Origin: Thermoplasmatales archaeon
Lineage (GTDB): Archaea > Thermoplasmatota > E2 > UBA202 > JdFR-43
DNA: 60,099 nt
Assembly (NCBI GenBank): GCA_014361245.1
Contig: JACIWB010000001.1
Coordinates: 70,622 to 130,720 of the forward strand
Direction of reading: 5' to 3'
Positions 2,704 to 39,081 of the stretch are shown piece after piece; position 1 is the first letter of the stretch, and each line of letters begins with the position of its first letter. The notes beneath the pieces are model-generated. The model saw only the letters and a list, made by a program, of their open reading frames with translations, made no database searches and had not been told where the DNA came from. A program made the position numbers and the translations under genes.

Positions 2704-2803
2704 TTTCACATTCCCTTATTAAAAAATGAATTATATAATTTATGGTTCTTGGGAAGGAAAAAGTTAAATAACAAAATATTTATATATTTGAAGACATTAT
2801 ATT

Positions 2804-2824
2804 GTTAGCAAAAAGTTAGCAAAA
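2804..2824 (+). promoter_or_regulatory. Direct repeat GTTAGCAAAA x2 (11-nt spacing) between an AT-rich TATA-like box (~2776-2790) and the GGTGG RBS of the surface operon
   Basis: Read directly: attGTTAGCAAAAaGTTAGCAAAAtggtggaaaaATG. A regulatory function is inferred only. Confidence 0.3.
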
Positions 2825-2834
2825 TGGTGGAAAA

Positions 2835-5537
2835 ATGAAAAAAGCAAAAATATTTGGGTTTGGGAATAGTGGGGTATCGGAAGTAGTTGGAACTATATTG
2901 CTTCTTGCAATCGCAATAAGCACATTCTCAGTTGTTGCAGTATATGTATTTTCAATAAATCAGCCAGAAAATACTCCAAATGTAACTCTCGTTGGATATG
3001 TAAATGAAATAGAGCATGTGGTAATAGAGCATAAGGGAGGAAAAAGCCTTGAATTGCAAAATTTGAGAATAGTTGTATGGAAAGGAGAAAAAAATAGCTC
3101 ATCATTTTCTTTTGATGAGAACGAAGAAATGGGAGAAAATGCAAAATTTTTCAAGATTAATTCAAACCATAGATGGGAAATAGGGGAATATGTTGATATA
3201 AATGCTACCGCAGTGTTTGGAAATATAACATACTGGCAGATAAGTGCAGTTATAGTTGATAAGGAAAGCAATTCAATAATTTTTTCTGGAGTACTTCAAC
3301 CAGGAGTAACAGATTATATAGTAAAGTCGGATGATGATCTGGAAAATGCCGCGGACTTTTCCTGGACGCCAAATCCAGCTTGCATCTATACTTATGTAAG
3401 ATTTATTGATCAATCAAAATATTCACAATACATAATTTCATGGAATTGGGACTTAGGAGATGGGAATACAAGTAATGAACAAAATCCAACACATACTTAT
3501 TCGAATCCATCAACATATAGAGTTACTCTGAATATAACATATCCTTCTTCAATAGTAGCTCCTGGAGTAAAAAATTGGGATACTTGTAGCAAAGATGTTT
3601 ATGTATCGGATGTTCCTATAATAAATTATAGTCCAGGAATAGCAACAACTGGCGACCCATATACTTTTTCAGTAGAGGTAATTGATTCAGATGGTGTTTC
3701 AGCAGTATATGTTGAATACTGGTTTAACGGTGGCGCGCATACAAATGGAAGTATGGAGAAAAATGGAGATGTGTGGGAATATACAATAGATGTCCCGCTA
3801 AATAGTTTAGCTCCACTTTATTATATTATTTCCGCGGAGGATACTTATCATTTCTGGAACAATACTGGAACTTTAACAACTGAAGTAAAAGATAATGACC
3901 CACCAGAAATAGTTGATTATTCTCCTTCAAGCGGAACAACAGGCGATCCATATACATTTTTAGTAAATGTTACGGACAATATAGATAGCGGAGGCAGTAT
4001 AGCAGTTTGGATAAACTGGGTTCATGGTTCAAAGGAGGGAAACAACTCCGCTAATTACATAGGCAATAACAATTACACCTTGACAATAAACTTAGACAAT
4101 AACTCAATAAATAACATGCTCTACATCATTTGTGCTATAGATTCTTCTGGAAATGCAAATTCCACAAACCAGAAGAGTGTAACAGTTTCAGATAATGACC
4201 CCCCTATAATCACAGATTACAGCTCTCAATGGGCATTCTGGAATGATGATTATATTTTTAATGCTTCGGTAGTTGATAATATAGCGGTTGCTAATGTATA
4301 TGTAACTTACTGGATAGATAATGGCTCACAAACAAATAACTCAATGAGTTTAACAGGAAACTATTACACATATACCTATCATATCACTGCAAGCGGAACT
4401 ACTTTATACTACAAATTTTCTGCAAAAGATACATCTAATAATTGGGCAGAAACAGCAATTTTCAGCAGAACATTATATTGGGGACATGTATATAATGTAG
4501 ATCAAGGCGAATGGTATAATGAAATATATGATGCAACAAAAGAGGCGAATCCAGGAGATACTATTTATGTATATCCAGGCACATATTATACACACGGAGG
4601 TGGTAATCAGGATATTGTTATAAATAAAAATGGTGTGGAACTAATAGGAGGAAGCTCACCTGATACCATAATATTGGTTAGCCAGCAGGACGGAATAACT
4701 GTTACTGCATCAAATGTTCTTATAAAAAATATTACCATGATTAAAAATTCAAATTCTCCACAAGGGAAAGAATTCAAAAAAGGAATTTATCTTAATGGAG
4801 CAAGTAATGTAACAATCGAAAATTGTAATATATCAGAAGCTGCCCAATCTGCTATTTATGTTACCGCAAGCCACGATATCCTTATAAATAACTGCACCCT
4901 ATATAAGAACTTACAGCATGGGGTTTACATAGGCGGTGGCTCATATAATGTAAATGTTTCATCTACCCACATATATCAAAATTCAGAAAATGGAATTTTA
5001 ATAGAGCAATCGAACAGCAATATTGTATATAACAACCAAATACATAATAACAGTAAAGGGGTGTATCTCTACAGAGCGCTTTATAATAACATAACTCAAA
5101 ACAATATTTACTGGAATGATATAGGAATATCCCTACAGGGAACAAATCAGGAAAAAACCAAACTAAACATTATATATTCAAATACAATTCATCACAACCA
5201 GGATGGCATCTATTTTGTAGAATACTCAACAAATAATAATATTACTTATAATACAATTCATAATAACACTCGCCTCTCTTCCATAGGATATGGAATTCGA
5301 ATAGTGTTTGCAACCAACAAAGAAAATAACCAAAATTATATTTATAAAAATAATCTAATAAACAATCAAGTAAATGGTTATGATGAATGTAACAATTACT
5401 GGGATAATGGAAGCTTTGGAAATTACTGGAGTGATTATACAGGAAGCGATGGAAATGGTGACGGAATAGGCGATACTCCTTATTCAATTCCTGGAGGAAA
5501 CAATAAAGATAATTATCCTCTCATGAATCCGATATAA
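2835..5537 (+). CDS. Giant pilin-like surface protein: archaeal class III (DUF1628-type) signal peptide, PKD domain, three Ig-like repeats, NosD-like right-handed beta-helix
   Basis: The N-terminus GNSGVSEVVGTILLLAIAISTFSVV matches the archaeal pilin N-terminal pattern (G-VSxViGxiLLvAI). A PKD motif is present (WNWDLGDGNTSNEQNPTHTYSNPSTYRVTLNI). The motif TTGDPYTF occurs in two consecutive ~100-aa modules, with a third module lacking it. Beta-helix repeats (NCxIxxN.. / NNIxxN) end in NYWSDYTGSDGNGDGIGDTPYSIPGGNNKDNYPLMNP. A GGTGG RBS precedes the ATG. Confidence 0.85.
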   Translation: MKKAKIFGFGNSGVSEVVGTILLLAIAISTFSVVAVYVFSINQPENTPNVTLVGYVNEIEHVVIEHKGGKSLELQNLRIVVWKGEKNSSSFSFDENEEMGENAKFFKINSNHRWEIGEYVDINATAVFGNITYWQISAVIVDKESNSIIFSGVLQPGVTDYIVKSDDDLENAADFSWTPNPACIYTYVRFIDQSKYSQYIISWNWDLGDGNTSNEQNPTHTYSNPSTYRVTLNITYPSSIVAPGVKNWDTCSKDVYVSDVPIINYSPGIATTGDPYTFSVEVIDSDGVSAVYVEYWFNGGAHTNGSMEKNGDVWEYTIDVPLNSLAPLYYIISAEDTYHFWNNTGTLTTEVKDNDPPEIVDYSPSSGTTGDPYTFLVNVTDNIDSGGSIAVWINWVHGSKEGNNSANYIGNNNYTLTINLDNNSINNMLYIICAIDSSGNANSTNQKSVTVSDNDPPIITDYSSQWAFWNDDYIFNASVVDNIAVANVYVTYWIDNGSQTNNSMSLTGNYYTYTYHITASGTTLYYKFSAKDTSNNWAETAIFSRTLYWGHVYNVDQGEWYNEIYDATKEANPGDTIYVYPGTYYTHGGGNQDIVINKNGVELIGGSSPDTIILVSQQDGITVTASNVLIKNITMIKNSNSPQGKEFKKGIYLNGASNVTIENCNISEAAQSAIYVTASHDILINNCTLYKNLQHGVYIGGGSYNVNVSSTHIYQNSENGILIEQSNSNIVYNNQIHNNSKGVYLYRALYNNITQNNIYWNDIGISLQGTNQEKTKLNIIYSNTIHHNQDGIYFVEYSTNNNITYNTIHNNTRLSSIGYGIRIVFATNKENNQNYIYKNNLINNQVNGYDECNNYWDNGSFGNYWSDYTGSDGNGDGIGDTPYSIPGGNNKDNYPLMNPI

Positions 5538-5538
5538 T

Positions 5539-8500
5539 ATGAGAAAGATAATAAAAAATAAATTTCTTTCATATGTTGTTACTGCGTTGTTACTGATTGT
5601 ATCATTCCCAATAATTGGGACTATATATGGAAAAGCAGGTATAATCTATGTTGGAAACGGTGGTTTCACTAGTATTCAGCAAGCAATAAATTATGCTGGG
5701 AATGGAGACACAATATTTGTTTATTCTGGAATATATTACGAAAATATTTTCATAAATAAAAATATAAAACTGCTTGGAGAAAACAAGGATGATGTAATAA
5801 TATATGGAAATGGGTTTGGGGATGTAATACATATTGAAGATTGTTCTGTGGAAATAAAAAATTTTACAATAATTAATAGTGGCGTGAATGAAGGAGATGC
5901 TGGAATAGAAATAAAATCAGCAAATAATTGTTACATTGGCGAAGTAGAGATAAAAAATAGCTATTACGGTGTTTATATAATTTCATCTGGGAATGTATTT
6001 ATTCAAAAATCCTCGATAACAAACAACTATTACGGGATATATAGTATGTTTTCTTATAATATTACTATTTCCGAAAATGAAATATTTTACAACTACAGGG
6101 ATGGAATTTACGCACAGGTTGTTGAAAATGGACAAATAATCCTTAATAAAATATCCGGCAATCTAAAAAATGGTTTATATCTAAGAGCCTCTAACAGCAT
6201 CAATATAAAAGGTAATAATATATCTTCTTCTGAAAATGGTATTTGGCTTATTTTATCAGACGAAAATAGCTTGGAGAATAATGTTATTGCAGGAAATGAT
6301 ATTGGATTGAAAATTGATGGTAGCAGTAACAACACTATATTCCTAAACAACTTTTTTTCAAATTCTATTTTCAATGCCAGAGATGATTCATCAAATTTCT
6401 ATGATAATGGAAGTGCAGGAAATTACTGGAGTGATTATACGGGAAGCGATGGAAATGGTGATGGAATAGGCGATACTCCTTATGCTATCCCGCCGGGAAA
6501 TAATAGAGATTACCACCCTCTTATGAACCCCACCATTACGGATACAATTCCTCCAAGAATTGAAAGTATTAATATCCACCCTGTGGTGCAGGAATTAAAT
6601 GGATACACCAATATAACTTCCATTGTTACAGATAATTTGGGGGTTGGGGATGTAAAGATAAATATAACTTTTCCAGATAGTACATCATTAGTTGCTGACA
6701 TGAACCAAATCTTTGGTAGTGTTTATTTTTATGTGGTTAATTGCCCTATATATGGAAATTATAGCTTTTTCATCATTGCAAATGATTTATTTAATAATAC
6801 AAACTCTTCTTTACTTTATAATTTTTCTGTTTCTCTTCCACAGGAGTTACCTAAAATATCAAATGTAAATGCCTTACCAAGCATACAGGAGTATCCAAAA
6901 ACAGTAAATATATCTTGTTATGTGAATGATAATGTAGGCGTTGGAGATGTAAAAACAATAATAAAAAGAGATGATTTTTTAGTAGGAAATTATACAATGG
7001 AAAAAATAAGCACAGATGAGAATGGAAATGGTTTATACTGCTATTATTTTACTCCTCCATACATTTCTAACTATTCCTACTACATATGGGTTGAAGACAT
7101 AAATTCAAACAAAAATAATTCATCCTATTACACTTTTTCAGTAGTTGATACAACCCCTCCTCAGATAAAAAATATTTCAATTTCTCCCGAAATAAAATTT
7201 GTAGGAGGGTATGTAAATATTTCATGCGAAATATACGATAATTATGCTGTAAATAATTCATTTGTTGAACTACATTTTCCTACTGGAGTAGTATCCAATA
7301 TATCTATGAGTAAAATAAACAACACATTTTTTATAAATCAATCTTTAGTTATAAATGGAACATATGAATTTAAAATTTTAACAAGCGATTTTTGTAATAA
7401 TTTTAACAATTCTTCAATTTATGAATTTTTTGTAACATTTCCCCCTATTGCAAACTTCACCTATGAGCCATTAAATCCAACAGATTTGGATATAATAACA
7501 TTTAATGCTTCTTCAAGCTATGATTTGGATGGCTCCATTGTTAATTATACATGGCAATTTGGAGACGGAAGCATTGCTTATGGTGAGATTGCGGAGCATA
7601 TCTATAGCAATGATGGAAATTACATAGTTAAGCTTACAGTATATGACAACGATGGAGCATACTCAAGCATTGAAAAAAATATTACTGTTTCAAATATAAT
7701 TCCCTTTGCAAATTTCACATTTCAGCCAGAAAATCCGATAGTTGGCGAGGAAGTCAGTTTTTATGATTTATCAAGCGATGCGGATGGGAGCATAAAAATA
7801 TGGGAATGGGATTTTGGGGATGGAACAAATTTATCTGGTGGAAAGGAAGAGCATAAAAATCCAAAGCATGTATATAGGAGAAATGGTATTTTCAATATAA
7901 CTCTCACTGTTTATGATGATGACTACGCAAAAAATACAACAAGCAAGCAGATAGAAGTCATAGATATATACCCTCCTTCAATAGAAAATTTATCTGTCCA
8001 TCCAAATCCTCAGGAAATAGGAAATGAAGTAAATATTTCATGTGACATTTTTGACGATGTTGAGGTCAGCGAAGCAAGAATAATCATAACCATGCCAAAT
8101 GGAAGCCAAATAAATGAAAGCATGCTACTCGCGGAAAAATATTACTACAAAATTCAGTGCAATCAGGAGGGAAATCACACCTTCTTCATTTTTGCAAAGG
8201 ACACGAGCAACAACTCCAACATCTCGCAAGCCCTTAACTTCACCATAATTGTGCCGCCTGAGCCGCCCCGCATAGAGAATGTGAGGTTGCAAAGTGTGCA
8301 GCAGTATGGCCTGCCGTTGAATATCTCATGCTATGTTTATGATAATATTGCGGTAAAGGAAACGAGGATAGTTTTTTCAGATGGCAATTTTTCAATGAGT
8401 GGAATTGTTGATGAGAAAGGAAACGGCATCTATTATTACAATTCAACATTTGATATGGGTTTGCATGCATTTTATATATATGCAGAAGATATAAATGGCT

Positions 8501-10146
8501 TCTTTAATATATCTACAAATTATTCATTTGAGATTATCGATACTCTGCTTCCGGAAATAAAAAATCTGATTTTTGAGGAAATCTGCCAGCCAGAAGAAGT
8601 TAATATATCATGCAATGTTTTTGATAATAGAGGAATAAAGGAAGTAAAGATAAATATAAGTGGAATTGAAAAAATTATGAATGGATACGGAAATCTATTT
8701 TATATAAATGAAAATCTATCAAGCGGAAACTATAGTTTTTACATAATTGCTGAAGATTTATCAAATAATAAAAATTCAACTTCCTATTACTCTTTCATTG
8801 TTACATATTTTCCAGTTGCAAATGATGATCATGCAATAACTGATGAAGACACTTCGATTTATATAGATATAACATCAAATGACTATGATATAGATGGAAG
8901 CATAAATGAAAGCAGTGTAACAATAACCCAGAATCCGTTTCATGGAAGCGTAAATGTTTATTCAAATGGAACAATTAAATATACTCCAGATGAAGATTAT
9001 TACGGCATAGATTCATTCAAATATAAGGTAAAGGATAATAGCAATGCTTGGAGCAATGAAGCATGGGTAAATATTACAATAAACAGCATAAATGATGTTC
9101 CTGTTGCAGATTTTGAATGGGAACCACTGAATCCAAAAATTAATGATACAGTCTATTTCTTTGATTTAAGTTATGATTTGGATGGCTTCATTGTTAATTA
9201 TACATGGGAATTTGGAGACGGAAACATAAGTTATGAAAAAAATTCAACTCATAGATATAATAGCGGAGGAAATTACATTGTGGTTTTAACTATAAAGGAT
9301 AATGAAGGGAAGAATTCAACAATTTCGAAAGAAATTTACATAAGTGAAGAAATTTTGATTGCAAACTTTACAATATTGAATGAAAATCCTTGTTCAAAAG
9401 AAGAAATAAGTTTTTTTGATTTATCATATGGTGCAACTTCATGGCTATGGGATTTTGGAGATGGAAGCATAAGTTATGAAAAGAATCCAAAGCATGTTTA
9501 TCAGATAGGAAGTTATTATAATGTAACCCTTACTATTTTTAATGGAAGCAGAAACGCAAGCATATCAAAAATCATACAGGTAGGAACAAAAATAGAAATA
9601 GTAAAAAACGAGAAAAATGTTGTTAATTATCTACCATGGTTTGGGAATGAAAAAAAAGCATCTGAAATTGCTGAAATTATAGGAGGTGAGATAATGCCAA
9701 ATGGAAGTGTTATAAGCAAATGGAATGTAAGCAAGGGAGCATTTGATAGCTATATAGTTGGTATATCCCCTCCTTCTTATGATTTTATGGTTTATCCCTA
9801 TGATGTAATTGTGCTGAGAGTTGCAGAAAGTGGATATTTTATAGAGGATGCATTTCCTGTAACAAGCAGAATTGTCAATGTTACAAAAAATGAAAATAAT
9901 GTGGTAAATCATTTTTCATGGAGTGCTTTTTATTCTGTAAATGCTTCTCAAATTGCTGAAATTATAGGAAGTGAGATAATGCCAGATGGAAGCGTGATAA
10001 GCAAATGGAATGTAAGCAAGGGAGCATTTGATAGCTATATAGTTGGTATATCTCCTCCTTCTTATGATTTTATGGTTTATCCTGGAGATACAATTGTTTT
10101 AAGAGTCGCAATAAGTGGTGAATTTTTGATTGAGGTGATAAAATGA
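5539..10146 (+). CDS. Giant (1535 aa) surface adhesin-like protein: signal/TM N-terminus, NosD-like beta-helix, ~8 Ig-like repeats, several PKD domains, cadherin-like module, duplicated C-terminal ~95-aa domain
   Basis: The beta-helix segment ends in NYWSDYTGSDGNGDGIGDTPYAIPPGNNRDYHPLMNP, nearly identical to the same segment in the upstream gene. PKD motifs are WQFGDGS, WDFGDGT, WEFGDGN and WDFGDGS. The cadherin-like module reads ANDDHAITDEDT..ITSNDYDIDGS. The start lies 1 nt after the upstream stop. Confidence 0.85.
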   Translation: MRKIIKNKFLSYVVTALLLIVSFPIIGTIYGKAGIIYVGNGGFTSIQQAINYAGNGDTIFVYSGIYYENIFINKNIKLLGENKDDVIIYGNGFGDVIHIEDCSVEIKNFTIINSGVNEGDAGIEIKSANNCYIGEVEIKNSYYGVYIISSGNVFIQKSSITNNYYGIYSMFSYNITISENEIFYNYRDGIYAQVVENGQIILNKISGNLKNGLYLRASNSINIKGNNISSSENGIWLILSDENSLENNVIAGNDIGLKIDGSSNNTIFLNNFFSNSIFNARDDSSNFYDNGSAGNYWSDYTGSDGNGDGIGDTPYAIPPGNNRDYHPLMNPTITDTIPPRIESINIHPVVQELNGYTNITSIVTDNLGVGDVKINITFPDSTSLVADMNQIFGSVYFYVVNCPIYGNYSFFIIANDLFNNTNSSLLYNFSVSLPQELPKISNVNALPSIQEYPKTVNISCYVNDNVGVGDVKTIIKRDDFLVGNYTMEKISTDENGNGLYCYYFTPPYISNYSYYIWVEDINSNKNNSSYYTFSVVDTTPPQIKNISISPEIKFVGGYVNISCEIYDNYAVNNSFVELHFPTGVVSNISMSKINNTFFINQSLVINGTYEFKILTSDFCNNFNNSSIYEFFVTFPPIANFTYEPLNPTDLDIITFNASSSYDLDGSIVNYTWQFGDGSIAYGEIAEHIYSNDGNYIVKLTVYDNDGAYSSIEKNITVSNIIPFANFTFQPENPIVGEEVSFYDLSSDADGSIKIWEWDFGDGTNLSGGKEEHKNPKHVYRRNGIFNITLTVYDDDYAKNTTSKQIEVIDIYPPSIENLSVHPNPQEIGNEVNISCDIFDDVEVSEARIIITMPNGSQINESMLLAEKYYYKIQCNQEGNHTFFIFAKDTSNNSNISQALNFTIIVPPEPPRIENVRLQSVQQYGLPLNISCYVYDNIAVKETRIVFSDGNFSMSGIVDEKGNGIYYYNSTFDMGLHAFYIYAEDINGFFNISTNYSFEIIDTLLPEIKNLIFEEICQPEEVNISCNVFDNRGIKEVKINISGIEKIMNGYGNLFYINENLSSGNYSFYIIAEDLSNNKNSTSYYSFIVTYFPVANDDHAITDEDTSIYIDITSNDYDIDGSINESSVTITQNPFHGSVNVYSNGTIKYTPDEDYYGIDSFKYKVKDNSNAWSNEAWVNITINSINDVPVADFEWEPLNPKINDTVYFFDLSYDLDGFIVNYTWEFGDGNISYEKNSTHRYNSGGNYIVVLTIKDNEGKNSTISKEIYISEEILIANFTILNENPCSKEEISFFDLSYGATSWLWDFGDGSISYEKNPKHVYQIGSYYNVTLTIFNGSRNASISKIIQVGTKIEIVKNEKNVVNYLPWFGNEKKASEIAEIIGGEIMPNGSVISKWNVSKGAFDSYIVGISPPSYDFMVYPYDVIVLRVAESGYFIEDAFPVTSRIVNVTKNENNVVNHFSWSAFYSVNASQIAEIIGSEIMPDGSVISKWNVSKGAFDSYIVGISPPSYDFMVYPGDTIVLRVAISGEFLIEVIK
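9592..10143 (+). repeat. Tandem in-frame duplication, period 285 bp (95 aa), at the 3' end of the 1535-aa gene
   Basis: The anchor aaattgctgaaattatagga occurs at 9665 and again at 9950. Cores of ~135 bp are nearly identical (IMPNGSVISKWNVSKGAFDSYIVGISPPSYDFMVYP in both copies). Confidence 0.9.
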
Positions 10147-12617
10147 AGAAAATAGGAAGTATAATTGTGTGTGTGTTGCTGGCGATGGCGAGCATAAGCA
10201 GCGTTGGACTGGACCAGCCATTTCCAGTGTATGGGTATATAAAGGATTCTAAGGGAAATGCTGTTTCCTGGGCACAGGTAATTGTCAGAGATATAACGAG
10301 GGGTACACAGATAATTGTGAGCACAAATGAATATGGTTTTTATCAGGCGGAGCTCAGCAGCCTGGCGGAATGCCAGAATGGAGATGTTATAGAGATATAC
10401 TGCTCTTATAACAATGAGGATAACAATAGAAGCTTTGTGCTTGATTTATCTCTTGCTTCAAAAAATGTTAGTTTCTCTCTTGTTGGCATACCATATGCAA
10501 AAACATTGAATGCAGAAAATATAACAAGTGGCTCCGCAAAATTAAATGGAGAGTTAATTTATCTAAATGATACTTCATGCCAAGTGTGGTTTGAATATGG
10601 GGAAACATTATCTTATGGATATTCGACATCAAAGATTACATATTATGGGCAAGCAAATTTTTCAGCAACAGTAAGCGGGCTTAAAGCTGATACAACCTAT
10701 CATTTTAGGGTTGTTGCCAAAAACAGCAGAAAAACATTTTATGGAAACGATGTTACATTTAGGACATCTCCATCCCTGCCAGAAGTAACAACAAATGATG
10801 CAACAGATATTTCGTATAATTCAGCGACTTTAAATGGTTATTTGAACAAGGTAGGGGCGAGCAGTTGCGAAGTATGGTTTGTTTATGATAATGCTTCACA
10901 TGATAAAATAGAGGATTACAGATATAATACTTCGCATATAATAAAGACATCTCCTTCCTCATTTTCTTCAACAATATCAAATCTTGAAGTAAATAAAACA
11001 TATTATTTCAGGGCGATTGCCAAAAATAGCGAAGGAACTGTATTTGGAGAGGAAAAAAATTTTACAACAAGGGTTATTTTGCCATCTGTTTCAACAATTT
11101 CTGCTGAAAATATAACAAGCAACTCAGCATATCTTAAAGGGGAGTTAGAGGATAGAGGGGGAGATGAATATTGCCAAATATGGTTTGAATATGGAGAAAG
11201 CACTTCCTATGGATTTGCTACAAGCATTTTATCTATAAATAAAGATGAAGAATTTTTGATTAAGGTTGAAAATTTAACTCCAGGAAAAACATATCATTTC
11301 AGGGCTGTTGCAAGAAATAGCAAAGGAACTTCTTATGGAAGTGATAAAACATTCAAGACAAATTCTACAAAAGCAAGCATTGAAACTTCAATTTCAAATT
11401 ATGCCATAATACTTACTGCAAATCTGGTTGATACAGGGGGCGAAATATGCTATGTTTGCTTTGAATATTGGAAGGAAGGAAATGAAACAATTTATAGAAC
11501 AGAAGAAAAGGCACTCAACTCACCAGGAATTTTTAATGAAACCATCTCTGGCCTGGAAAGCAACACAAGATATTATTATAGGGCTGTTGTGAGGAATAGC
11601 CAGGGCACATCCTACGGCACAAACTTGTCTTTCACAACGAGCTCGGCGCCGCCAGCGCCCTCATTGGCGGGAGAAGATGCGCTTCCTTCTTTCAATAATG
11701 CAACGTTTCAATGCAATGTTTCTCTTGGAGCAAATGATTTCTGTTATCTATGGTTTGAGGTTTGGGACGGTGAAAAAATCTCATCTGAAGTTATGATTGT
11801 TGAGGAAAATTGCTCCTTAAATTATACGATTGAAGGGCTTGAAAGTGGAAGGGAATATAATTATAGGGCTGTTGCTGTTGGTTCAAACGGTGGAATAGCA
11901 TATGGAGAAATTAAAAATTTTTTAACGCTTGAAAAAGAAAATCATCAGCCATATGTGAGTATTCTTTATCCAGAAAATAATTCGCTTGTAGATACCAACA
12001 TTTCTTTAATGGCGGAAGTATATGATGAAGACAATGATTTGCTTATCGTAAAATTCCATATAAATGATGAAATTTTTATTTTAAATTCAAGAAATGGAGT
12101 TGTGAGCATCAACTTGTCTCTTGATTACGGAAAAAATTATTCATGGTTTGTAGAAGTTAGCGATGGGAAAATAAACGCTTCCTCGCCAATCCTTGTCTTT
12201 AGAACAAAAAGCGATATTTATGCGGATTTTATAACCTCTTTCATTTTAGAAAAAGAGTTGGCTTATTTCTACGATAATTCATCTGGTGAAATAGTTTCAT
12301 GGCTATGGGATTTTGGAGATGGAAATGTGAGTTATGAAAGAAATGCAACACATGTATATGAAAAAGCAGGAGTTTATACTGTAAATCTAACAGTAAATGA
12401 TTTATATGGAAAAAGCTCATCTAAGGAAAGGGAAATAAATGTTTTTTCAAGAGGAGATGCAAACATGGATGGAAAAATAAATGCTCTTGATATAACAAAA
12501 ATAGAAAGAATAATTGCAGGAATTGATGAGGAAACAATTACGGCGGATTTGGACGGCAATGGAAAAATAAATGCGGAAGATTTAAATGAATTGATAAATA
12601 AGATACTGGGAATATGA
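10143..12617 (+). CDS. Secreted protein: CarboxypepD_reg-like domain, ~6 Fn3-like repeats, PKD domain, C-terminal dockerin
   Basis: It has a signal peptide (MKKIGSIIVCVLLAMASISS). A repeated ~95-aa unit follows the pattern ..C.VWFEYGET.SYG..T.....F...SGL...TTYHFR.VA.NS.GT.YG.D..F.T. The PKD motif is WLWDFGDGNVSY. The start overlaps the upstream stop in an ATGA. Confidence 0.85.
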   Translation: MKKIGSIIVCVLLAMASISSVGLDQPFPVYGYIKDSKGNAVSWAQVIVRDITRGTQIIVSTNEYGFYQAELSSLAECQNGDVIEIYCSYNNEDNNRSFVLDLSLASKNVSFSLVGIPYAKTLNAENITSGSAKLNGELIYLNDTSCQVWFEYGETLSYGYSTSKITYYGQANFSATVSGLKADTTYHFRVVAKNSRKTFYGNDVTFRTSPSLPEVTTNDATDISYNSATLNGYLNKVGASSCEVWFVYDNASHDKIEDYRYNTSHIIKTSPSSFSSTISNLEVNKTYYFRAIAKNSEGTVFGEEKNFTTRVILPSVSTISAENITSNSAYLKGELEDRGGDEYCQIWFEYGESTSYGFATSILSINKDEEFLIKVENLTPGKTYHFRAVARNSKGTSYGSDKTFKTNSTKASIETSISNYAIILTANLVDTGGEICYVCFEYWKEGNETIYRTEEKALNSPGIFNETISGLESNTRYYYRAVVRNSQGTSYGTNLSFTTSSAPPAPSLAGEDALPSFNNATFQCNVSLGANDFCYLWFEVWDGEKISSEVMIVEENCSLNYTIEGLESGREYNYRAVAVGSNGGIAYGEIKNFLTLEKENHQPYVSILYPENNSLVDTNISLMAEVYDEDNDLLIVKFHINDEIFILNSRNGVVSINLSLDYGKNYSWFVEVSDGKINASSPILVFRTKSDIYADFITSFILEKELAYFYDNSSGEIVSWLWDFGDGNVSYERNATHVYEKAGVYTVNLTVNDLYGKSSSKEREINVFSRGDANMDGKINALDITKIERIIAGIDEETITADLDGNGKINAEDLNELINKILGI
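12453..12614 (+). other. Dockerin module (two Ca-binding segments)
   Basis: GDANMDGKINALDITKIERIIAG and ADLDGNGKINAEDLNELINKILG fit the duplicated dockerin consensus D.N.DG.INa.D...l...i.g. Confidence 0.75.
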
Positions 12618-15568
12618 AAAAATTAGTTATTCTTGCACTGCTTTTTATTCCAATTATTGCAAGAGGAGATGTCTTTATAGATGCTCCATCAGTTGTTTTA
12701 GTTGAAAATAACTTTTACTTATATGTAAATGTTGAAAATGTTGAAATGTTTAATTCAGCAGATTATTCAATTTTTTACAATTCGTCAATTTTTGCAGTTG
12801 AAGCAGTAGAGAACGGAAATATAAATGGGAGTGAGATAAACTGCAATTATTCAATAAAGGATGGGGAATGCAAAATTGTAAGCGACGCTTCTCTTAATCC
12901 TTTAAATGGCTCTGGTTACCTATCAAAAATTAAGTTTAGATGCATTGCAAGTGGCTTATCATATATATCAATTGAAGGAAACATGAGCGATTTCTATGGA
13001 AATGAAATAAATGTTTCATGGAATGGAAAAAATATAGTTGCTACACCTACTTGCCTTAAAATAGACGCACCAGATATTGCAAGTGGATATTTTTATGCTT
13101 TTATAAATATTTCAAATGTAAGTTTTTTAAATGCAACGAATTTTGAATTGATATTCGACAAATATTTTATAGAATTCATCGAGATTGAGAACGGCTCTAT
13201 AGGAGGAGATGAAGTTTGTATCTATTTCAATGAATTTGCGGACGGAATAAAGATTGTTGCTCTTACAAATGCAAGCGGTAGCGGATGCATAGCAAAAATA
13301 AAATTTAGAGTAAAAAATTTAGGTAGCACAAATATCAATATATCAAATGCTACATTAAGCGGATTTTATGAAGAAATATCTCCATATATAATGAATAAAA
13401 CAATTTTAATCTCCTCCCGCCCGCCAGTCGCAAATGATGATTATTATACAACAAATGAAGATATTATGCTTGTTGCAATTGCTCCTGGAGTTCTTGAAAA
13501 TGATTATGATGCAGATGGAGATACCTTATCTGCAATTCTTGTTAGTGAGCCAAGCCATGGAAGCTTATCATTTAATTCAAATGGCTCATTTATCTATGCT
13601 CCTCAACCAAATTATTATGGGCAAGATAGCTTTACTTATAAAGCATATGATGGACAAGCGGATAGCAACATTGCAACAGTTTATATAAATATAACAGCGG
13701 TAAATGATGCCCCTTTTGCAGTTGATGATACAGCAAGCACAAGTGAAGATACACCTGTTTTGATAAATTTAACATCAAATGATTATGATATAGATGGAAG
13801 CATAGATTTAACAAGCATATCAATAACTCAAAATCCATCTCATGGAAGTTTAAATGTTTATTCAAATGGAACAATTAAATATACTCCAGATGAAGATTAT
13901 TATGGCTCAGATTCATTCAAATATAAAGTAAAGGATAATGATGGAGCAGAAAGCAATGAAGCATGGGTAAATATTACAATAAATCTAGTAAACCATCCGC
14001 CAAATAAACCATCTTTAGTAAGCCCAGCAAATAATTCAGCTGATGTAAGCATAAATCAAACATTAACTGTTCATGTTGTTGATGTGGATGGAAATTCAAT
14101 GAGTGTTAAATTCTATGGTCGCAAATTAGGAAACTCAACATGGCAACTGCTTGGCATAAATACAGGTGTAGGGAATAACACAGATACCTCCATAACATGG
14201 TATAATCTTGAATATGGCACAACATATGAATGGTATGCAGGTGCAAATGATAGCATCACTGAAAATTCATCAGATATATGGAGATTTACAACTCAATCAT
14301 TTCCAACCGTAAATCATGCACCAGTTGCAAATGATGATTATTATTCAACAAATGAAGATATTATGCTTGTTGTAAATGCCCCTGGAGTTCTTGGAAACGA
14401 TACCGATGCAGATGAAGATACCTTATCTGCAATTCTTGTTAGTGAACCAAGCCATGGAAGCTTAATCTTTAATTCAAATGGCTCATTTACCTATATTCCT
14501 AAATCAAATTACTATGGCTCGGATAGCTTTACTTATAAAGCATATGATGGACAAGCATATAGCAACATAGCAAAAGTTTATATTACAATAAATCCAGCAA
14601 ATGACCCTCCTCAAAAGCCAGCATCGCCAAATCCAGCAAATGGGGCAACAAATGTTGGCATAAATGCAGTTTTATCATGGCAATGCATCGATGTTGATGG
14701 AGATGCTTTTTATGATGTTTATTTTGGAACTTCATCAAATCCACCAAAAGTGGCAACTGTTACAACAAAAAGCTATAATCCAGAATTAAGTTATGAAACA
14801 ACTTATTACTGGCGAGTGGTTGCAAAAGATGGGCAATATGAGAATTCATCAGATACATGGAGTTTTACAACTATGTCATATATTCCTCCACCTCCTCCAC
14901 CAGCCAATCAGCCGCCAACATGCTCATTGAATGCAAATATTAGCCAGGGATATGCTCCTCTTCATGTTAATTTTATAATGAATGCAAGCGACGATGGAAG
15001 CATAGCAAGCTGGGAGCTTGATGTAGATAATGATGGAATTGCTGAATATAATGGCTCTGGTCCTCCTCCTTCAACAAAGCAGCATGTCTATACAACGCCT
15101 GGAAATTATACAGCAAGGCTAATAGTTAGAGATGATAAGGGGGCAAGCGATGATACAGAAATAACAATAAGGGTTTTGCAAAATCATAAGCCAGTTGTAA
15201 CAATTGTTAATCCATTTAGTGGCATTAAAATATCTGAAAATATACTGATTGAGGGATTTGCAAGCGATGAAGATGGAAATGATACAATACAAAGAGTAGA
15301 GATAAAAATTGATGGCGGGCAATGGCAGCCTGCGGAAGGCAAAAATTCATGGAGATATTTGCTTAATATAAGTGGAATAGGCGAAGGAGAGCATATAATT
15401 TATGCAAGAAGTTATGATGGAATAGATTATAGCGAGGAAAAATATATAGGAATAACTGTGGAAAAAATCAGGGAAGAGAAGAAATCCATATATCCCTACA
15501 TTTTTATTTTGGTGGCAATCGTTATTGCAATAATATTTGTAATCAGAAAATATCGTAAAGTTATTTAA
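12614..15568 (+). CDS. Membrane-anchored scaffold-like protein: signal peptide, two cohesin-like modules, four cadherin-like modules, Fn3-like and PKD-like domains, C-terminal TM helix plus basic tail
   Basis: The start overlaps the upstream stop in an ATGA. Cadherin-like motifs include VANDDYYTTNEDIM..ENDYDADGDTL and TSNDYDIDGSIDL. The C-terminus is SIYPYIFILVAIVIAIIFVIRKYRKVI. Confidence 0.85.
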   Translation: MKKLVILALLFIPIIARGDVFIDAPSVVLVENNFYLYVNVENVEMFNSADYSIFYNSSIFAVEAVENGNINGSEINCNYSIKDGECKIVSDASLNPLNGSGYLSKIKFRCIASGLSYISIEGNMSDFYGNEINVSWNGKNIVATPTCLKIDAPDIASGYFYAFINISNVSFLNATNFELIFDKYFIEFIEIENGSIGGDEVCIYFNEFADGIKIVALTNASGSGCIAKIKFRVKNLGSTNINISNATLSGFYEEISPYIMNKTILISSRPPVANDDYYTTNEDIMLVAIAPGVLENDYDADGDTLSAILVSEPSHGSLSFNSNGSFIYAPQPNYYGQDSFTYKAYDGQADSNIATVYINITAVNDAPFAVDDTASTSEDTPVLINLTSNDYDIDGSIDLTSISITQNPSHGSLNVYSNGTIKYTPDEDYYGSDSFKYKVKDNDGAESNEAWVNITINLVNHPPNKPSLVSPANNSADVSINQTLTVHVVDVDGNSMSVKFYGRKLGNSTWQLLGINTGVGNNTDTSITWYNLEYGTTYEWYAGANDSITENSSDIWRFTTQSFPTVNHAPVANDDYYSTNEDIMLVVNAPGVLGNDTDADEDTLSAILVSEPSHGSLIFNSNGSFTYIPKSNYYGSDSFTYKAYDGQAYSNIAKVYITINPANDPPQKPASPNPANGATNVGINAVLSWQCIDVDGDAFYDVYFGTSSNPPKVATVTTKSYNPELSYETTYYWRVVAKDGQYENSSDTWSFTTMSYIPPPPPPANQPPTCSLNANISQGYAPLHVNFIMNASDDGSIASWELDVDNDGIAEYNGSGPPPSTKQHVYTTPGNYTARLIVRDDKGASDDTEITIRVLQNHKPVVTIVNPFSGIKISENILIEGFASDEDGNDTIQRVEIKIDGGQWQPAEGKNSWRYLLNISGIGEGEHIIYARSYDGIDYSEEKYIGITVEKIREEKKSIYPYIFILVAIVIAIIFVIRKYRKVI
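12668..13411 (+). other. Two tandem cohesin-like modules (~125 aa each)
   Basis: DVFIDAPSVVLVENNFYLYVNVENVEMFNSADYSIFYNSSIFAVEAVENG...GYLSKIKFRCIASG and LKIDAPDIASGYFYAFINISNVSFLNATNFELIFDKYFIEFIEIENG...GCIAKIKFRVKNLG both follow the cohesin pattern (v.v.v..v..l.g.df.l.yd...l....v..G....g.la.i.F). This is pattern recognition only, with no HMM run. Confidence 0.55.
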
Positions 15569-15585
15569 TTGAGGTGATATATCAA

Positions 15586-16776
15586 ATGATGCGTGATAAG
15601 GGACAGGTTGGAATTGTTGTTGCAATATTGCTTGTTGTTTTATTAGTTTCAGTTCTTGCAGTTATACAGCTCTACTATGTGCCAAGATGGATGGAGGAAA
15701 GAGAAGCCGAGCATATGGATGTTGTTGCAAATCAATTTGCAAATTTAAAATATGCTGTTGATTTAATAGCGATGGAAAAAATTTCCTCTCCTTTAACAAC
15801 TTCGATAACGCTTGGAAGCAAGGAATTACCATATTTTCTTTCCTCCCGCTCTTTTGGCTCTATCCAGATTTTATCAAGCAGTATGAGCAATTTCGATTTT
15901 TCTTTAGAGATAGATGGATATGAATATGAAGAAAAAGAAAATGTATCATGCAGCAATACAAGCATATCAAATATAATTTCAATAAGTTCTCTTGAATTGA
16001 ATATAAATAAGCTAAATATCGGTGACTATTACAATATCTCCTTTTCAGATAACTCATCAATATCTGTAAAGGTGGATGATTTCAACGATTATTGCAGAAT
16101 TAATCTTACAGTAAAAAAAGAAAATACAACAATTTTAAATCAGACAATATTTTCAGGAATTGACAAGGGAAGCACATTTTTTATAAACTTAATGGATGAA
16201 GAATATGCATTTTCAACAAAGGTTTTACCCTATATAGCCAAGCCATTTAACGCAACATTTTCAGTTTCAAATGGTATTTTCAGTATAAGTTATGAGAGGT
16301 ATAAAGAAGCTGAAAATTGCTCTTTTTCTCTTGGAACTTTAATATATCAGGCAGACAATGCCTACTTTGTTGACCAGAATTATATATATGAAGGAGGAGC
16401 CGTTTTTTTAAGCCAGCATGATGGAAACACAACCTTATTCTCCCCATCTATTGAGGTAGCAAATTCAAGTATTAATCTCACGCTCATTAATATTACACCA
16501 GTGCCGGGCAAGGCGGGGGCGGCGGGCTATGGCACATATCTGGTGAGGGTAAATTATTCGAGTTTTGAATCCTATAGATATTTTGGAAATATAACATTAA
16601 AAATTGTGAGCAATTATAATTATTCATGGAACAGATTTTTGAATAAGACATTTAACGAAAGCGGAATTAATTATGATTACGATTGGAACTCTGGAAAGTT
16701 TGAATTGAATGAAATAGAATTTGTATTAAATGTAGTAAAAATTTACGCTCAAGTTGGGCCGGGATGGGTTGAATAA
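15586..16776 (+). CDS. Pilin-like protein with class III signal peptide (396 aa from ATG 15586; track ORF starts at GTG 15574)
   Basis: MMRDKGQVGIVVAILLVVLLVSVLAVIQLYYV is a short basic leader, a KG/Q cleavage-type motif and a hydrophobic helix. A GAGGTGA RBS lies 9 nt upstream of ATG 15586. The remainder is rich in N-x-S/T sequons. Confidence 0.75.
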   Translation: MMRDKGQVGIVVAILLVVLLVSVLAVIQLYYVPRWMEEREAEHMDVVANQFANLKYAVDLIAMEKISSPLTTSITLGSKELPYFLSSRSFGSIQILSSSMSNFDFSLEIDGYEYEEKENVSCSNTSISNIISISSLELNINKLNIGDYYNISFSDNSSISVKVDDFNDYCRINLTVKKENTTILNQTIFSGIDKGSTFFINLMDEEYAFSTKVLPYIAKPFNATFSVSNGIFSISYERYKEAENCSFSLGTLIYQADNAYFVDQNYIYEGGAVFLSQHDGNTTLFSPSIEVANSSINLTLINITPVPGKAGAAGYGTYLVRVNYSSFESYRYFGNITLKIVSNYNYSWNRFLNKTFNESGINYDYDWNSGKFELNEIEFVLNVVKIYAQVGPGWVE

Positions 16777-18663
16777 CTACTCAAAGGAAGCAAGTTTCTT
16801 TATCAATTCTTTCTTCTTTTTTCCAACAAGTGCATGCTCCAGAACTTCTTTAAGGGTTGAAACAGGTATAATTTCAATCATATCCCTATATTTATCTTCA
16901 ATTAGCACATCCTGCAGATTTGCTTTTGGTATTATAACTTTTTTAATTCCAGCCTTTGCAGCCGCTTCAATTTTTGCAGTTACCCCTCCTACAGGCAATA
17001 CTGTTCCATGAATGCTTAAGGAACCAGTCATTGCAACCTGCTGGCTTACAGGAACTCTTTCCATTGCAGAAATAACAGCCGTAGCAACTGATATTGAAGC
17101 GGAATCTCCTTCCACACCTTCATATGTTCCTATAAATTGGATATGAATATCTTTTTTCGATATATCCTCACCAATATATTTCTTTATTATTGCAGAAACA
17201 TTCTGGACTGCTTCTCTTGCTATTATCCCAAGTTTGCCGGTAGCAACTACTTTTCCTTCAGCCTGCGAGCCAGCTGGGGTAACTTCTGCAGCTATAGGAA
17301 GAATCAAGCCAGAGTATTCACTCATCGACGGATCAGCAGACATTACAGCCAGCCCATTGACTATGCCAATTTTTGCTCCATCTGTCTCAAAATATTTGTA
17401 TGCTTTCTTCTTCTCTATATATCTGTCCGCAACCTGTTGCTCAAGACTTCTTGCAATTTCCTTTGCCTTGATTACATGCTCCTGAGTAACAATATTTTTT
17501 CCTTCTTTTATTGCAATGTCGCCCGCAACTCTTATAAGCCCTCCTAGCTCACGAAGCCTTAATGAGAGCTTTCCCTTTTGCCCAGCCCTTCTTTGTGCCT
17601 CTCTTATTATCTCTGCAACCGCCTTCTTGTCAAAATGAGGAATTTTACCATCCTTTGCTACTTCCTGCGCAACAAATCTTATAAGTTTTTCTCTATTCTC
17701 TTCATTATCATCCATCACATTATTCATATAAACTTCGTATCCATATCCCCTTATCCTGCTCCTTAAAGCGGGATGCATACCCGCAACTGCATCAAGATTT
17801 CCAGCACAAACCAGAATGAAATCACAGGGAACCGGCTCAGTTTTAACCATTGCTCCAGCACTCCTTTCAGACTGGCCAGTTATAGAAAACTTCTTCTCCT
17901 GGATTGCGGTAAGCAAATGCTGCTGTGATTGCAAGCTCAATGTATTTATCTCATCAATATAAAGCACTCCTTTATGTGCCCTGTGAATTGCTCCCGCCTC
18001 TACCCTCAAGTGAGGAGGTGTTTCAAGCCCCCCTGCCTGAAAAGGGTCGTGGCGCACATCACCGAGCAGGGCGCCGGAATGGGCGGCGGTTGCATCAATG
18101 AATGGGGGGGTGTCATCTTTTGTATGAGAGACGAGTATTTTTGGTATGTTTGCCTCCTCTCTTCGCTGAATAATGCTTCCTCTGCCAGCTATTAGATAAA
18201 TCATTGCAGCTGCTATCAGCCCGAAAAAGGCAAGGGTTATGTCATAATATATCGCCCCGAATATTGAGAGAATGATTATGAATGATACAATAAGGTTAAC
18301 AAACTGGCTCTGCTGTTGCTCTCTCCTCCTCGCCTCAATCTTCATTTTTTCTACAATTTCCTTCCCTTTTTCAGCAGGGACAACTCTTATAAGAGGAGTG
18401 TTTGCATCGTCTTTATTTGGATATACCAGTATATCCTCAAGCTCTTCTTTTGGCAAAAATTCGGTCATTGCCCTCGCCAGCATTGATTTGCCAGTGCCAG
18501 GCTCGCCTATGAGCATCACATGCCTTTTCTGTCTTGCTGCCTGTCTTACAACTTCTACTACATGATCCTGCCCTATTACCTGGTCTATAAGCAATTTCGG
18601 AATACTTATTTCTGCTGTTGTGTTAAAATTTTTTGTTTCTATCCATTCATCTATTTGCAACAT
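16777..18663 (-). CDS. lonB: Archaeal membrane-bound Lon protease (LonB)
   Basis: It has a Walker A (GEPGTGKS), a TM insertion inside the AAA+ module ([38 protein letters not shown]) and a C-terminal Lon proteolytic domain ([15 protein letters not shown]...[26 protein letters not shown]). Confidence 0.95.
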
Positions 18664-18882: not shown

Positions 18883-19082
18883 TTTATCACCTTGCCTATA
18901 ACACCTTCATGTATATAATGCTATTGGAAAAAAAATGGGCATGTAAAGTGCTTAAATTATTTCGTTCTTCTATTTTACCAAAGAGCATGGAGAAATTATC
19001 AATTATGAATATACTCTTTACAGAAAATTTTCTAATTCCAAAAATATTTAAACTTTTATTCATTATGTTTTTGGTAATTAAA

Positions 19083-22788: not shown

Positions 22789-22949
22789 AAAAGCTTGATG
22801 AGATAATAGAAGAACTTGAAAAAGGAGAGCTACCTCTTGAAGAAACAATATCAAAATTTGAAGAAGGGATAAAGCTCTGCAAGTTATGCAGGGAAAAAAT
22901 TCAGATGGCGGAAATGAAAATAGAAAAACTTATGGAAGACATAAAATGA
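22743..22949 (+). CDS. xseB: Exodeoxyribonuclease VII small subunit
   Basis: FEEALKKLDEIIEELEKGELPLEETISKFEEGIKLCKLCREKI fits the XseB helical hairpin consensus. The gene overlaps the xseA 3' end. Confidence 0.8.
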   Translation: MHCEGEKEIGFEEALKKLDEIIEELEKGELPLEETISKFEEGIKLCKLCREKIQMAEMKIEKLMEDIK

Positions 22950-36545: not shown

Positions 36546-36731
36546 TAATTAAAAATAAGCGATGCGGTTGTATATAAGGATTGTGGACTAAAATTTATAA
36601 AATAATTAATAACTCATAATTTATGAAACATATTTCATGCAATTAATGCACATATATTAAGTAAGAAAGTCTTGGAATGTTGTAAGTTATCCAAAATGGT
36701 AGGATTTATAAATAACAAGATAATTTTTTTT

Positions 36732-38772: not shown

Positions 38773-39081
38773 ATGATTAAAAATATTTCAAAAGAAATTT
38801 TAATCAGAAAATCTTTACAGTATATGCAAAATATTCACAAGCTATTAGGACAAAAATATGTTCGACTAATTTTGGAGGAATTAGAGAAAGATGATAAAAG
38901 TTTTAGTGAAATTGCTTATAACGTTGTAAAAAATACCGCTATGGCAAACAACACTCTGAAAAAACTCCTTGCAGAGAATTTCGTAAAGAAAAACAATAAA
39001 GGTAGAAAAACAATATATTCTATTACGGAAAAAGGTAAAGAATTGCTAAATTATATTAGGGTTGGTGATAAATTTGAATGA
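38773..39081 (+). CDS. Small winged-helix transcriptional regulator
   Basis: RLILEELEKDDKSFSEIAYNVVKNTAMANNTLKKLLAENFVKKNNKGRKTIYSITEKGKELL shows an HTH followed by a wing (K.GR...Y.iTekG). Confidence 0.65.
   Translation: MIKNISKEILIRKSLQYMQNIHKLLGQKYVRLILEELEKDDKSFSEIAYNVVKNTAMANNTLKKLLAENFVKKNNKGRKTIYSITEKGKELLNYIRVGDKFE

Follow-up and report, generated by a model that had tools for sequence, protein, structure and literature searches.

A conserved Thermoplasmatota operon encodes pilin-type proteins together with a predicted cohesin–dockerin surface scaffold

In most archaea, pilin genes lie outside the type IV pilus operons, and ATPase/TadC modules act in trans (PMC4858521). Cuniculiplasma divulgatum, a member of the Thermoplasmatales, carries its pilin genes CdiPA and CdiPB ~500 kb from the machinery (PMC12448462), and other trans-encoded sets are PilA1-6 of Haloferax volcanii, which are served by PilB3/PilC3, and the stand-alone pilins of Methanococcus maripaludis (PMC4858521, PMC12448462). 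Large adhesin-like proteins have already been described in archaeal type IV filament loci (PMC4858521; 10.64898/2026.04.22.720090), as has the idea of 'functionalised' type IV filament machineries (10.64898/2026.04.22.720090). Here we analyse an operon of five genes, g1 to g5, in a 60-kb stretch of archaeal DNA (60,099 nucleotides (nt) of contig JACIWB010000001.1 from a Thermoplasmatales archaeon, ~33% G+C; hereafter the window). The outer genes encode a pilin-headed giant adhesin (g1) and a pilin-like protein of the DUF7289 family (g5), and the three genes between them encode proteins with Sec-type signal peptides, including a cohesin–dockerin pair. We conclude, with a probability of roughly 0.55, that the operon encodes a pilin/adhesin set separated from its assembly machinery, together with a cohesin–dockerin surface scaffold.

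The trans-encoded pilin sets resemble this operon in having class III-type N-termini of the same kind and in lying away from an ATPase/platform operon, by which the pilin-type products of g1 and g5 are likewise presumed to be served. Those sets consist of small filament-forming pilins, whereas the operon holds a giant adhesin fusion and a DUF7289 protein amid non-pilin surface proteins, which would be assembled in trans. A preliminary description of the stretch had suggested such a separation of pilin set and machinery; it is plausible but not new, having been established in archaea that include the Thermoplasmatales (PMC12448462). Thermoplasmatota pilus loci (CP070724.1 (L005/L040), L006 and L008; L and P numbers are our labels for loci and proteins) contain a DUF7289 protein that is a full-length homologue of g5, and small and large Pilin_N proteins homologous to the N-terminal module of g1, large fusions of 500-1400 amino acids (aa) being standard there. 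Unlike these loci, the operon has no gene for an ATPase, a platform protein or a small pilin, its DUF7289 protein has an insert of ~125 aa, its two pilin-type genes are split by three Sec-type genes that include the cohesin–dockerin pair, and it ends convergent with lonB.

The Sulfolobus bindosome carries large functional ectodomains on class III signal peptides, much as g1 and g5 would on their class III-type leaders, and uses filament machinery for non-filament cargo. The cargo here is adhesin-like (beta-helix, PKD and Ig-like domains) and not solute-binding, and we found no solute-binding domain in g1-g5 and no BasEF-like, ATPase or platform genes nearby. A further analogue is the bacterial PilY1 priming complex. 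The bacterial minor-pilin/PilY1 tip complex and the archaeal PilY-like and large adhesins (PMC4858521; 10.64898/2026.04.22.720090) share with the operon a logic in which low-abundance pilin-like proteins go with a displayed large adhesin; PilY1 itself is no pilin fusion, we found no sequence relationship to the operon, and the analogy is functional only. Cellulosome-type anchoring scaffoldins are also cell-tethered and also combine cohesins with type I dockerins, both of which score above Pfam cutoffs here (g4 and g3, respectively). In contrast to them, the predicted anchor of g4 is a C-terminal transmembrane helix and not an SLH domain or a sortase signal, there are no catalytic subunits, and the pair is co-operonic with pilin-type proteins. 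Non-cellulosomal cohesin and dockerin proteins occur in archaea, in Archaeoglobus and ANME, and in the literature we found nothing on an archaeal operon joining cohesin, dockerin and pilin. The operon is a variation on known archaeal pilin/adhesin and cohesin–dockerin themes; the preliminary description read it largely correctly but as something more exotic.

Pilin-type proteins at both ends of the operon

The product of g1 contains a Pilin_N domain (PF07790; aa 12-81) that scored 57.0 bits in the full-length protein and 61.8 bits in its N-terminal 182 aa, against a cutoff of 25.2. The small pilins (144-153 aa) of complete pilus loci match aa 1-155 of g1 over their whole length, with 35% identity (E 1e-19 to 1e-21). 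In the AF2 model (pLDDT 79 overall, ~90 in the head), a helix at residues 12-41 is followed by a beta-sandwich (strands 50-154). Foldseek searches of the PDB detected only Halobacterium archaellins at E<=1e-3 (9eq7_B and 9eq7_E; E 1.2e-4 for 9eq7), and FlaG (5tuh) followed at E 3.6e-3. The leader resembles those of class III signal peptides (MKKAKIFGFGNSG/VSEVVGTILLLAIAIS, the slash marking the predicted cleavage site): Ser stands at -2, G at -1, V at +1 and E at +3, ahead of a hydrophobic helix, and NSG/VSEVVGTILLL fits the pattern x[AG]/VSE[IV][IVL]GT.LLL common to 61 Pilin_N proteins that pilus loci encode. When the N-terminal 182 aa were used to search for homologues, a single match came up, too few to define a family; orthologues of g1 share 50-93% identity with it.

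Behind the pilin module, our analysis bore out the fusion to PKD, Ig-like and NosD-like beta-helix domains described earlier (Table 1). The preliminary description had singled out the size of g1, typical archaeal pilins being far shorter. That is true of typical pilins, but g1 is not exceptional, because Pilin_N proteins of 500-1400 aa are routine in Thermoplasmatota pilus loci and large adhesin-like proteins have been published.

The product of g5 matches DUF7289 with 34.2 bits (cutoff 27). It aligns end to end with short forms of ~290 aa, from which it differs by an insert of ~125 aa (roughly aa 100-240), and we refer to it as a long form. This homology to the short DUF7289 proteins of pilus loci, whose genes lie between those of a small pilin and a large pilin-fused adhesin just downstream of PilB/PilC-type genes, greatly strengthens the earlier view of g5 as pilin-like, which had its N-terminus as sole basis. 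Its leader comprises six residues, MMRDKG, and is followed by QVGIVVAILLVVLL, so that g1 and g5 both have class III-type N-termini with a short polar leader, Gly at -1 and a hydrophobic helix. We found 224 homologues of g5; all named ones among the matches listed are Thermoplasmatota metagenome-assembled genomes (MAGs), most matches being unnamed. In 119 of 120 listed homologues, a short polar leader is followed by G or A and then by [QV]VG[IV]vVAiLL; the exception, P0005 (295 aa), is apparently truncated at its N-terminus. The motif YVPxWMExxEAEHM, present in g5, is almost invariant after the hydrophobic stretch, and the alignment has 23 invariant columns, including Q28, P33, M36, E40, H43 and M44, with a conserved GPGW near the C-terminus (AQVGPGWVE at the end of g5). 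The AF2 model of g5 (pLDDT 89.4) consists of a 61-residue helix (residues 4-64) and an all-beta domain, which is the 'lollipop' layout of pilins. A DUF7289 profile search returned 1656 cluster representatives at E<=1e-3, mostly of 280-300 aa with a minority of 410-480 aa, and we found no paper on the family. From size and context, our guess is that DUF7289 is the 'arCOG02911 minor pilin' of PMC4858521.

Table 1 Features of the operon and of its surroundings in window coordinates
Feature	Position (nt)	Strand	Detail	Basis
Divergent intergenic region, putative operon promoter	2705..2834	+	130 nt	Read from sequence
g1, pilin-headed giant adhesin	2835..5537	+	900 aa	Pfam, AF2 model, homology
g1 leader	2835-2873	+	MKKAKIFGFGNSG/VSEVVGTILLL	Sequence
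g1 complete pilin module	2835-3311	+	aa 1 to ~155	Homology to small pilins
g1 PKD domain		+	aa 197-235	Pfam
g1 three Ig-like (DUF4625-like) repeats		+	~aa 265-560	
g1 NosD-type right-handed beta-helix	4662-5486	+	aa 610-884	Pfam Beta_helix/NosD
g2	5539..10146	+	1535 aa; Sec-type signal peptide	Pfam
g2 C-terminal tandem of two ~95-aa domains	9654-9840, 9939-10125 (window 9654-10125)	+	aa ~1372-1529	
g3	10143..12617	+	824 aa; Sec-type signal peptide, fn3-like repeats, PKD, C-terminal dockerin	Pfam
g3 type I dockerin	12453-12608	+	aa 771-822	Dockerin_1, 39 bits (cutoff 22.9)
g4, predicted membrane-anchored scaffold	12614..15568	+	984 aa; Sec-type signal peptide	Pfam
g4 two N-terminal cohesins	12671-13423	+	aa 20 to ~270	PF00963, 42.3 bits (cutoff 24.1), two stretches
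g4 C-terminal transmembrane helix and basic tail	15479-15565	+	IYPYIFILVAIVIAIIFVIRKYRKVI	Hydrophobic segment at aa 956
Shine-Dalgarno site of g5	15571..15578	+	GAGGTGAT; 7 nt before the g5 ATG	Read from sequence
g5, long-form DUF7289 pilin-like protein	15586..16776	+	396 aa	Pfam DUF7289 (PF23960)
lonB, LonB protease	16777..18663	-	Context only, not claimed as part of the complex	Pfam Lon_C and LonB_AAA-LID
CARDB protein	1-2703	-	>901 aa, continues past the window edge	
Predicted secreted/surface protein	18909-20339	+	476 aa	Weak PKD match
Archaeosortase A and phosphatidylserine decarboxylase genes	22886-24423	+	Overlap by ATGA; archaeosortase A at 22886-23827	NCBIfam TIGR04125 (archaeosortase A)
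DDE transposase fragment	32084-32458		124 aa	
PKD protein, predicted secreted/surface	33240-35279	-	679 aa	
Type II restriction-modification pair	36672-38375	+/-	MvaI/BcnI-family endonuclease (+), convergent N4/N6 DNA methyltransferase (-)	
Radical SAM/spore-photoproduct-lyase-like gene and TcmP gene	39062-40954	+/-	Convergent; TcmP 'three-Cys-motif partner' (-)	TIGR04474, 111 bits (TcmP)
DDE transposase with DUF772	41317-42900		527 aa	
Beta-propeller protein, predicted secreted/surface	46606-48651	-	681 aa	
S8e, SRP19 and resolvase neighbourhood	50908-52838			
Serine recombinase	52005-52838	-		

Genomic contexts of DUF7289

We compared the best 80 of 204 DUF7289 loci, with flanks of up to 10 kb. 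Most of the DUF7289 genes recovered sit in pilus loci, and for the majority of short forms the surrounding type IV pilus locus is complete and has one of two gene orders, either T2SSE, T2SSF, Pilin_N (~145 aa), DUF7289 and Pilin_N (500-1400 aa), or two T2SSE and two T2SSF genes followed by Pilin_N (~1180 aa) and DUF7289; the two orders together account for ~30 loci. In related Thermoplasmatota, a triad of small pilin, DUF7289 and large pilin-fused adhesin adjoins PilB/PilC-type genes, and this context links both end genes of the operon, g1 and g5, to type IV pili. In a third context of the short form (L066-L068, L088, L084 and L062), a Sec-type NosD-like beta-helix protein (~620 aa) precedes DUF7289 (~280 aa), and further 3' lie two KaiC/RecA-like, ATPase-looking genes and an apparent L3-L4-L2-S19-L22-S3 ribosomal operon, as judged from N-terminal sequence only.

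Long-form DUF7289 genes occupy ~31 loci. In at least 12 species besides that of the window, with g5 identities of 37-83%, long-form DUF7289 is likewise preceded by g2, a dockerin-bearing g3 and a g4 with cohesin and transmembrane anchor, in this order. The comparison with related genomes proposed in the preliminary description thus shows that the arrangement is not due to chance, the same gene order being found in at least a dozen other species. Dockerin-bearing g3 orthologues are present in at least 12 loci, and in ~20 loci the gene just upstream of the long-form DUF7289 gene ends in a transmembrane helix and basic tail. In L089 and L091, the g1 orthologue has the g2 orthologue as its neighbour, and L001 and L089 keep the ATGA overlaps between genes. 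Among close relatives, g1 is 84% identical in GCA_038863095.1 and g5 is 76% identical in GCA_014361195.1. In the L002/L003 lineage, DUF7289 follows a Pilin_N-NosD protein of 1763 aa and one PKD protein of 2052 aa, which replaces g2-g4. Comparison of the loci therefore leaves as constant elements a pilin-headed beta-helix protein, a giant transmembrane-anchored protein encoded directly 5' of DUF7289, and DUF7289 itself.

In one MAG (L026, 7307-11182), the g4 homologue runs without a stop into DUF7289 to give an open reading frame (ORF) of 1291 aa, which may be a genuine fusion or a variant introduced by assembly or sequencing. At the junction, the transmembrane helix and the basic tail ...IIFANIVKLFKKRGFNS are followed by MNRKG/QVG..., an order that fits a leader on the cytoplasmic side of the membrane.

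A cohesin–dockerin pair among the Sec-type proteins

The preliminary description had placed a dockerin/cohesin pair among the middle proteins. We located the dockerin in g3 and the cohesins in g4, both above Pfam cutoffs (Table 1). In g3, two calcium-loop repeats of the form D-x-[ND]-x-[DN]-G-x-I-N-x-x-D are visible, DANMDGKINALD and DLDGNGKINAED. The cohesin match in g4 arose when the N-terminal 271 aa were scanned alone and was not listed in the full-length scan; weak sequence matches of this N-terminus in the PDB were both to cohesins (4ums and 2o4e). Beyond the cohesins, g4 contains three Big_9/cadherin-like domains and fn3-like, PKD and Big_7 domains. An archaeosortase A gene lies nearby, and we therefore considered g4 as an archaeosortase A substrate. 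This was rejected for lack of a PGF-CTERM signal at the C-terminus: the last 99 aa gave no PGF-CTERM match and contain no PGF motif, and Loki-CTERM stayed below threshold (13.5 bits against 19.9).

The g2 protein combines a NosD beta-helix (aa 46-302) with Ig-like repeats, four PKD domains and one Big_9/cadherin-like domain, all detected with Pfam. It ends in a tandem of two domains that follow the pattern ...NVSKGAFDSYIVGISPPSYDFMVYPGD.IVLRV..SG.F.IEVIK and match no Pfam family. Their two DNA copies are 88% identical, and g2 orthologues of at least 10 species carry the tandem, likewise at their very C-terminal end. This tandem probably mediates attachment to the g3/g4 assembly and is a candidate new attachment module. 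A search of g1-g5 for catalytic families (glycoside hydrolase, lyase or peptidase) gave no scoring match.

Operon structure, sequons and boundaries

The five plus-strand ORFs are packed as described previously, and reading the sequence confirmed every junction. The g1 stop codon (TAA, 5535-5537) is separated from the g2 ATG by one T; g2/g3 and g3/g4 overlap by ATGA (10143-10146 and 12614-12617), and GAGGTGA lies 7 nt upstream of the g3 start. The g4 TAA (15566-15568) is followed by TTGAGGTGATATATCAAATGATG, and a gap of 17 nt that contains a Shine-Dalgarno site separates it from g5. The true start of g5 is almost certainly the ATG at 15586, because the GTG at 15574 chosen by the ORF caller falls within the Shine-Dalgarno site GAGGTGAT and because g5 homologues of 395-398 aa begin MMRDKGQVG. 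Such tight translational coupling would hold the five products in fixed proportion. A TATA-like element, TTTATATA, lies at 2779-2786, 49 nt 5' of the g1 ATG, which is preceded at ~5 nt by a Shine-Dalgarno-like GGTGG. Rfam and tRNA scans found no match inside the operon.

All five proteins are rich in N-x-S/T sequons, with 3.0-4.5 per 100 aa compared with 0-1.3 in the cytoplasmic proteins of the window. Relative to composition-preserving shuffles, the excess corresponds to z values of 2.0, 9.4, 4.9, 6.1 and 6.4 for g1 to g5, respectively, the excess in g1 being marginal. With this reservation for g1, the sequon counts agree with the preliminary description, as do the Pfam results with the product anatomy that it gave, namely pilin-like proteins at the ends and a cohesin/dockerin pair between them. 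DNA repeats with 82-88% identity connect g1 with g2 and g2 with g4, and both g2 and g4 contain such repeats internally, which shows that domains have recently been exchanged among the operon's genes.

Upstream, a CARDB gene diverges from the operon, starting at 2703; its protein is sequon-rich too (2.2 per 100 aa, z = 4.0). We considered this gene as a sixth operon member and rejected it, since other genes take its place in relatives: L089 has a PF03417 (AAT) gene there and L091 a small helix-turn-helix (HTH) gene.

Downstream, g5 and lonB meet tail to tail, their stop codons separated by 0 nt (16774-16779). Of 35 long-form locus records, 29 have a convergent LonB gene, with stops -8 to +17 nt apart in 27 and often overlapping by 4 or 8 nt. 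So widely conserved a convergent pair is unusual, and it is found even in L018 and L038, in which no adhesin genes accompany the pair. Coupling through antisense transcripts or 3' ends might underlie the arrangement, as might some connection with the membrane protease itself. Two recurring genes near lonB in relatives were examined as possible hidden machinery and rejected: an 1175-aa gene resembles, together with the next two genes, SMC and ScpA/ScpB by N-terminal sequence and gene order, and the N-terminal sequence of a 569-aa gene is that of a signal-peptide protein.

Proposed assembly and competing readings

We propose that the operon products would form a glycosylated cell-surface adhesion assembly from two protein sets. 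The pilin-type set, g1 and g5, corresponds to two members of the triad described above. Prepilin peptidase would cut both proteins after Gly, and an ATPase and platform of a type IV pilus, with genes in another part of the genome, may incorporate them as low-abundance minor or tip subunits, by which the beta-helix adhesin of g1 would be displayed on a filament or short pseudopilus. In the Sec-type set, g4 would be held in the membrane by its C-terminal helix with its two cohesins distal, g3 would dock on g4 via its dockerin, and g2, a predicted secreted beta-helix/PKD protein, is perhaps held on the g4 scaffold too. A role as tip or cargo proteins of a pilus whose machinery is encoded elsewhere, one of the two options raised in the preliminary description, is the best supported reading, in which assembly in trans would still have to be assumed.

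Several observations weigh against this proposal. The residue at -2 of g1 is Ser, whereas the FlaFind rule expects K/R/D/E; seven g1 orthologues have K/R/E/D there (P0121, P0124, P0125, P0127, P0128, P0139 and P0149). Foldseek detected no PDB structure at E<=1e-3 for the g5 model, the best match being a galectin-like sandwich (1.2e-2), and the pilin status of DUF7289 therefore rests on architecture and gene context. The window does not encode a type IV pilus ATPase, platform and peptidase together with the pilins, in agreement with the preliminary description: Pfam scans covering 40 further ORFs detected neither T2SSE nor T2SSF nor peptidase A24, and six-frame tblastn of the window with pilus ATPase and platform queries gave nothing at E<=0.01. 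There is also no gene for a small (major) pilin in the window. In the flanks (up to 10 kb) of the ~31 long-form loci, neither an ATPase nor a platform gene was found (no search for the peptidase was made there), and within the best 80 of 204 loci no assembly with a long-form locus recurs among the short-form loci. In two species (L018 and L038), the long-form DUF7289 gene stands beside LonB without adhesin genes, and the short-form loci L066-L068 and L088 have no pilus ATPase or platform gene labelled within their flanks.

A pilus-independent surface coat or adhesin complex would account for part of this evidence, and we regard it as the most serious alternative, albeit an unlikely one. The class III-like N-termini of g1 and g5 would then be membrane anchors only, uncleaved or cleaved and membrane-retained like Sulfolobus bindosome components, and the g4-anchored cohesin–dockerin assembly would form an S-layer-like glycoprotein canopy with no ATPase-driven filament. 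The absence of ATPase and platform genes from the window and the long-form flanks (up to 10 kb), the lack of a small pilin gene in the window, and the pairing in L066-L068 and L088 of a short-form DUF7289 with a Sec-type beta-helix protein all agree with such a coat, as does the almost invariant position of a g4-type protein with a C-terminal transmembrane anchor upstream of long-form DUF7289. S-layer-like proteins with C-terminal transmembrane domains have been noted near archaeal type IV pilus loci (PMC4858521), which counts for it too. A plain anchor, however, would not need the pilin N-terminal signature, including G/A at -1, that is conserved in both g1 and g5; moreover, the g1 N-terminal module is homologous to small pilins over its full length, and most recovered DUF7289 genes lie in pilus loci.

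A bolder and rather doubtful possibility is that the long-form DUF7289 operon encodes an undescribed archaeal surface organelle, a pilin-nucleated cohesin–dockerin 'adhesome'. Here g1 and a specialised DUF7289 pilin, g5, could form a short membrane-rooted stalk or tip onto which g2-g4 are clipped as a glycoprotein scaffold, its construction relying on a borrowed ATPase or on no ATPase of its own, with g5 locked tail to tail with lonB across ~30 species.

We consider it improbable that the operon encodes a cellulosome-like enzyme complex, in which the NosD/CASH-type beta-helices of g1 and g2 would act on or bind polysaccharide on the g4 scaffold and adhesion would be secondary. The Beta_helix/NosD domains of both proteins, the Pel9A-like beta-helix matches precomputed for the g1 orthologues P0122 and P0124, and the cohesin–dockerin pair on a scaffold with a membrane anchor speak for an enzyme complex. 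Yet no glycoside hydrolase, lyase or peptidase family scored in g1-g5, two cohesins face one dockerin only, the bulk of the proteins consists of Ig-like, PKD, fn3 and cadherin-like stalk of the kind typical of adhesins, and the pilin modules would be left unexplained. That five unrelated secreted-protein genes merely lie side by side and are transcribed independently, as the variable upstream neighbours (CARDB, AAT or HTH genes) and variable middle genes (one 2052-aa gene in L002 and L003) might suggest, is very improbable, because the operon is conserved, with overlapping or near-abutting frames (the same ATGA overlaps in L001 and L089), a five-gene order that persists down to ~37% g5 identity, and 82-88% identical DNA repeats indicative of recent exchange between the genes.

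Other features of the window

The window also contains housekeeping genes (among them LonB, ribosomal protein S8e, glutamine synthetase and succinyl-CoA ligase) and four further large predicted secreted or surface proteins (Table 1). The archaeosortase A gene lies 6 kb 3' of the operon; its product (313 aa, seven hydrophobic segments) scores 151 bits with TIGR04125 (cutoff 75) and has no Pfam match at E<=0.001. In haloarchaea, archaeosortase A and phosphatidylserine decarboxylase are reported to be paired in the anchoring of ArtA substrates to lipid. We identified no PGF-CTERM substrate in the window, the C-terminus of g4 included. Besides a restriction-modification pair and a radical SAM/TcmP gene pair, the window carries transposase and recombinase genes, which point to some mobile-element activity in the region.

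The S8e, SRP19 and resolvase neighbourhood of the window is shared with Thermoplasmatales CP070724 (54%, 52% and 63% identity, respectively). In CP070724 and three other MAGs (L005/L040/L041/L043), a complete pilus locus (T2SSE x2, T2SSF x2, ~1180-aa Pilin_N, DUF7289) immediately precedes S8e; the window instead has genes for a tRNA-Leu and a metallo-beta-lactamase-fold protein there.

Implications

Our analysis improves the annotation of these proteins: NCBI calls an 84%-identical g1 orthologue (P0123) merely a 'right-handed parallel beta-helix repeat-containing protein', and 'hypothetical protein' is the label on most of the g5 homologues with a source name. DUF7289 gains a first functional context, its gene neighbourhoods marking it as pilin-like and as part of type IV pilus loci in Thermoplasmatota, and a conserved operon ties pilin-type proteins to a cohesin–dockerin scaffold. 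If this link is physical, two assembly principles that have so far been studied apart would be combined in one structure, and this structure, modular and glycosylated, would be the means by which uncultured Thermoplasmatota of sediments, vents and hot springs hold on to particles or partner cells.

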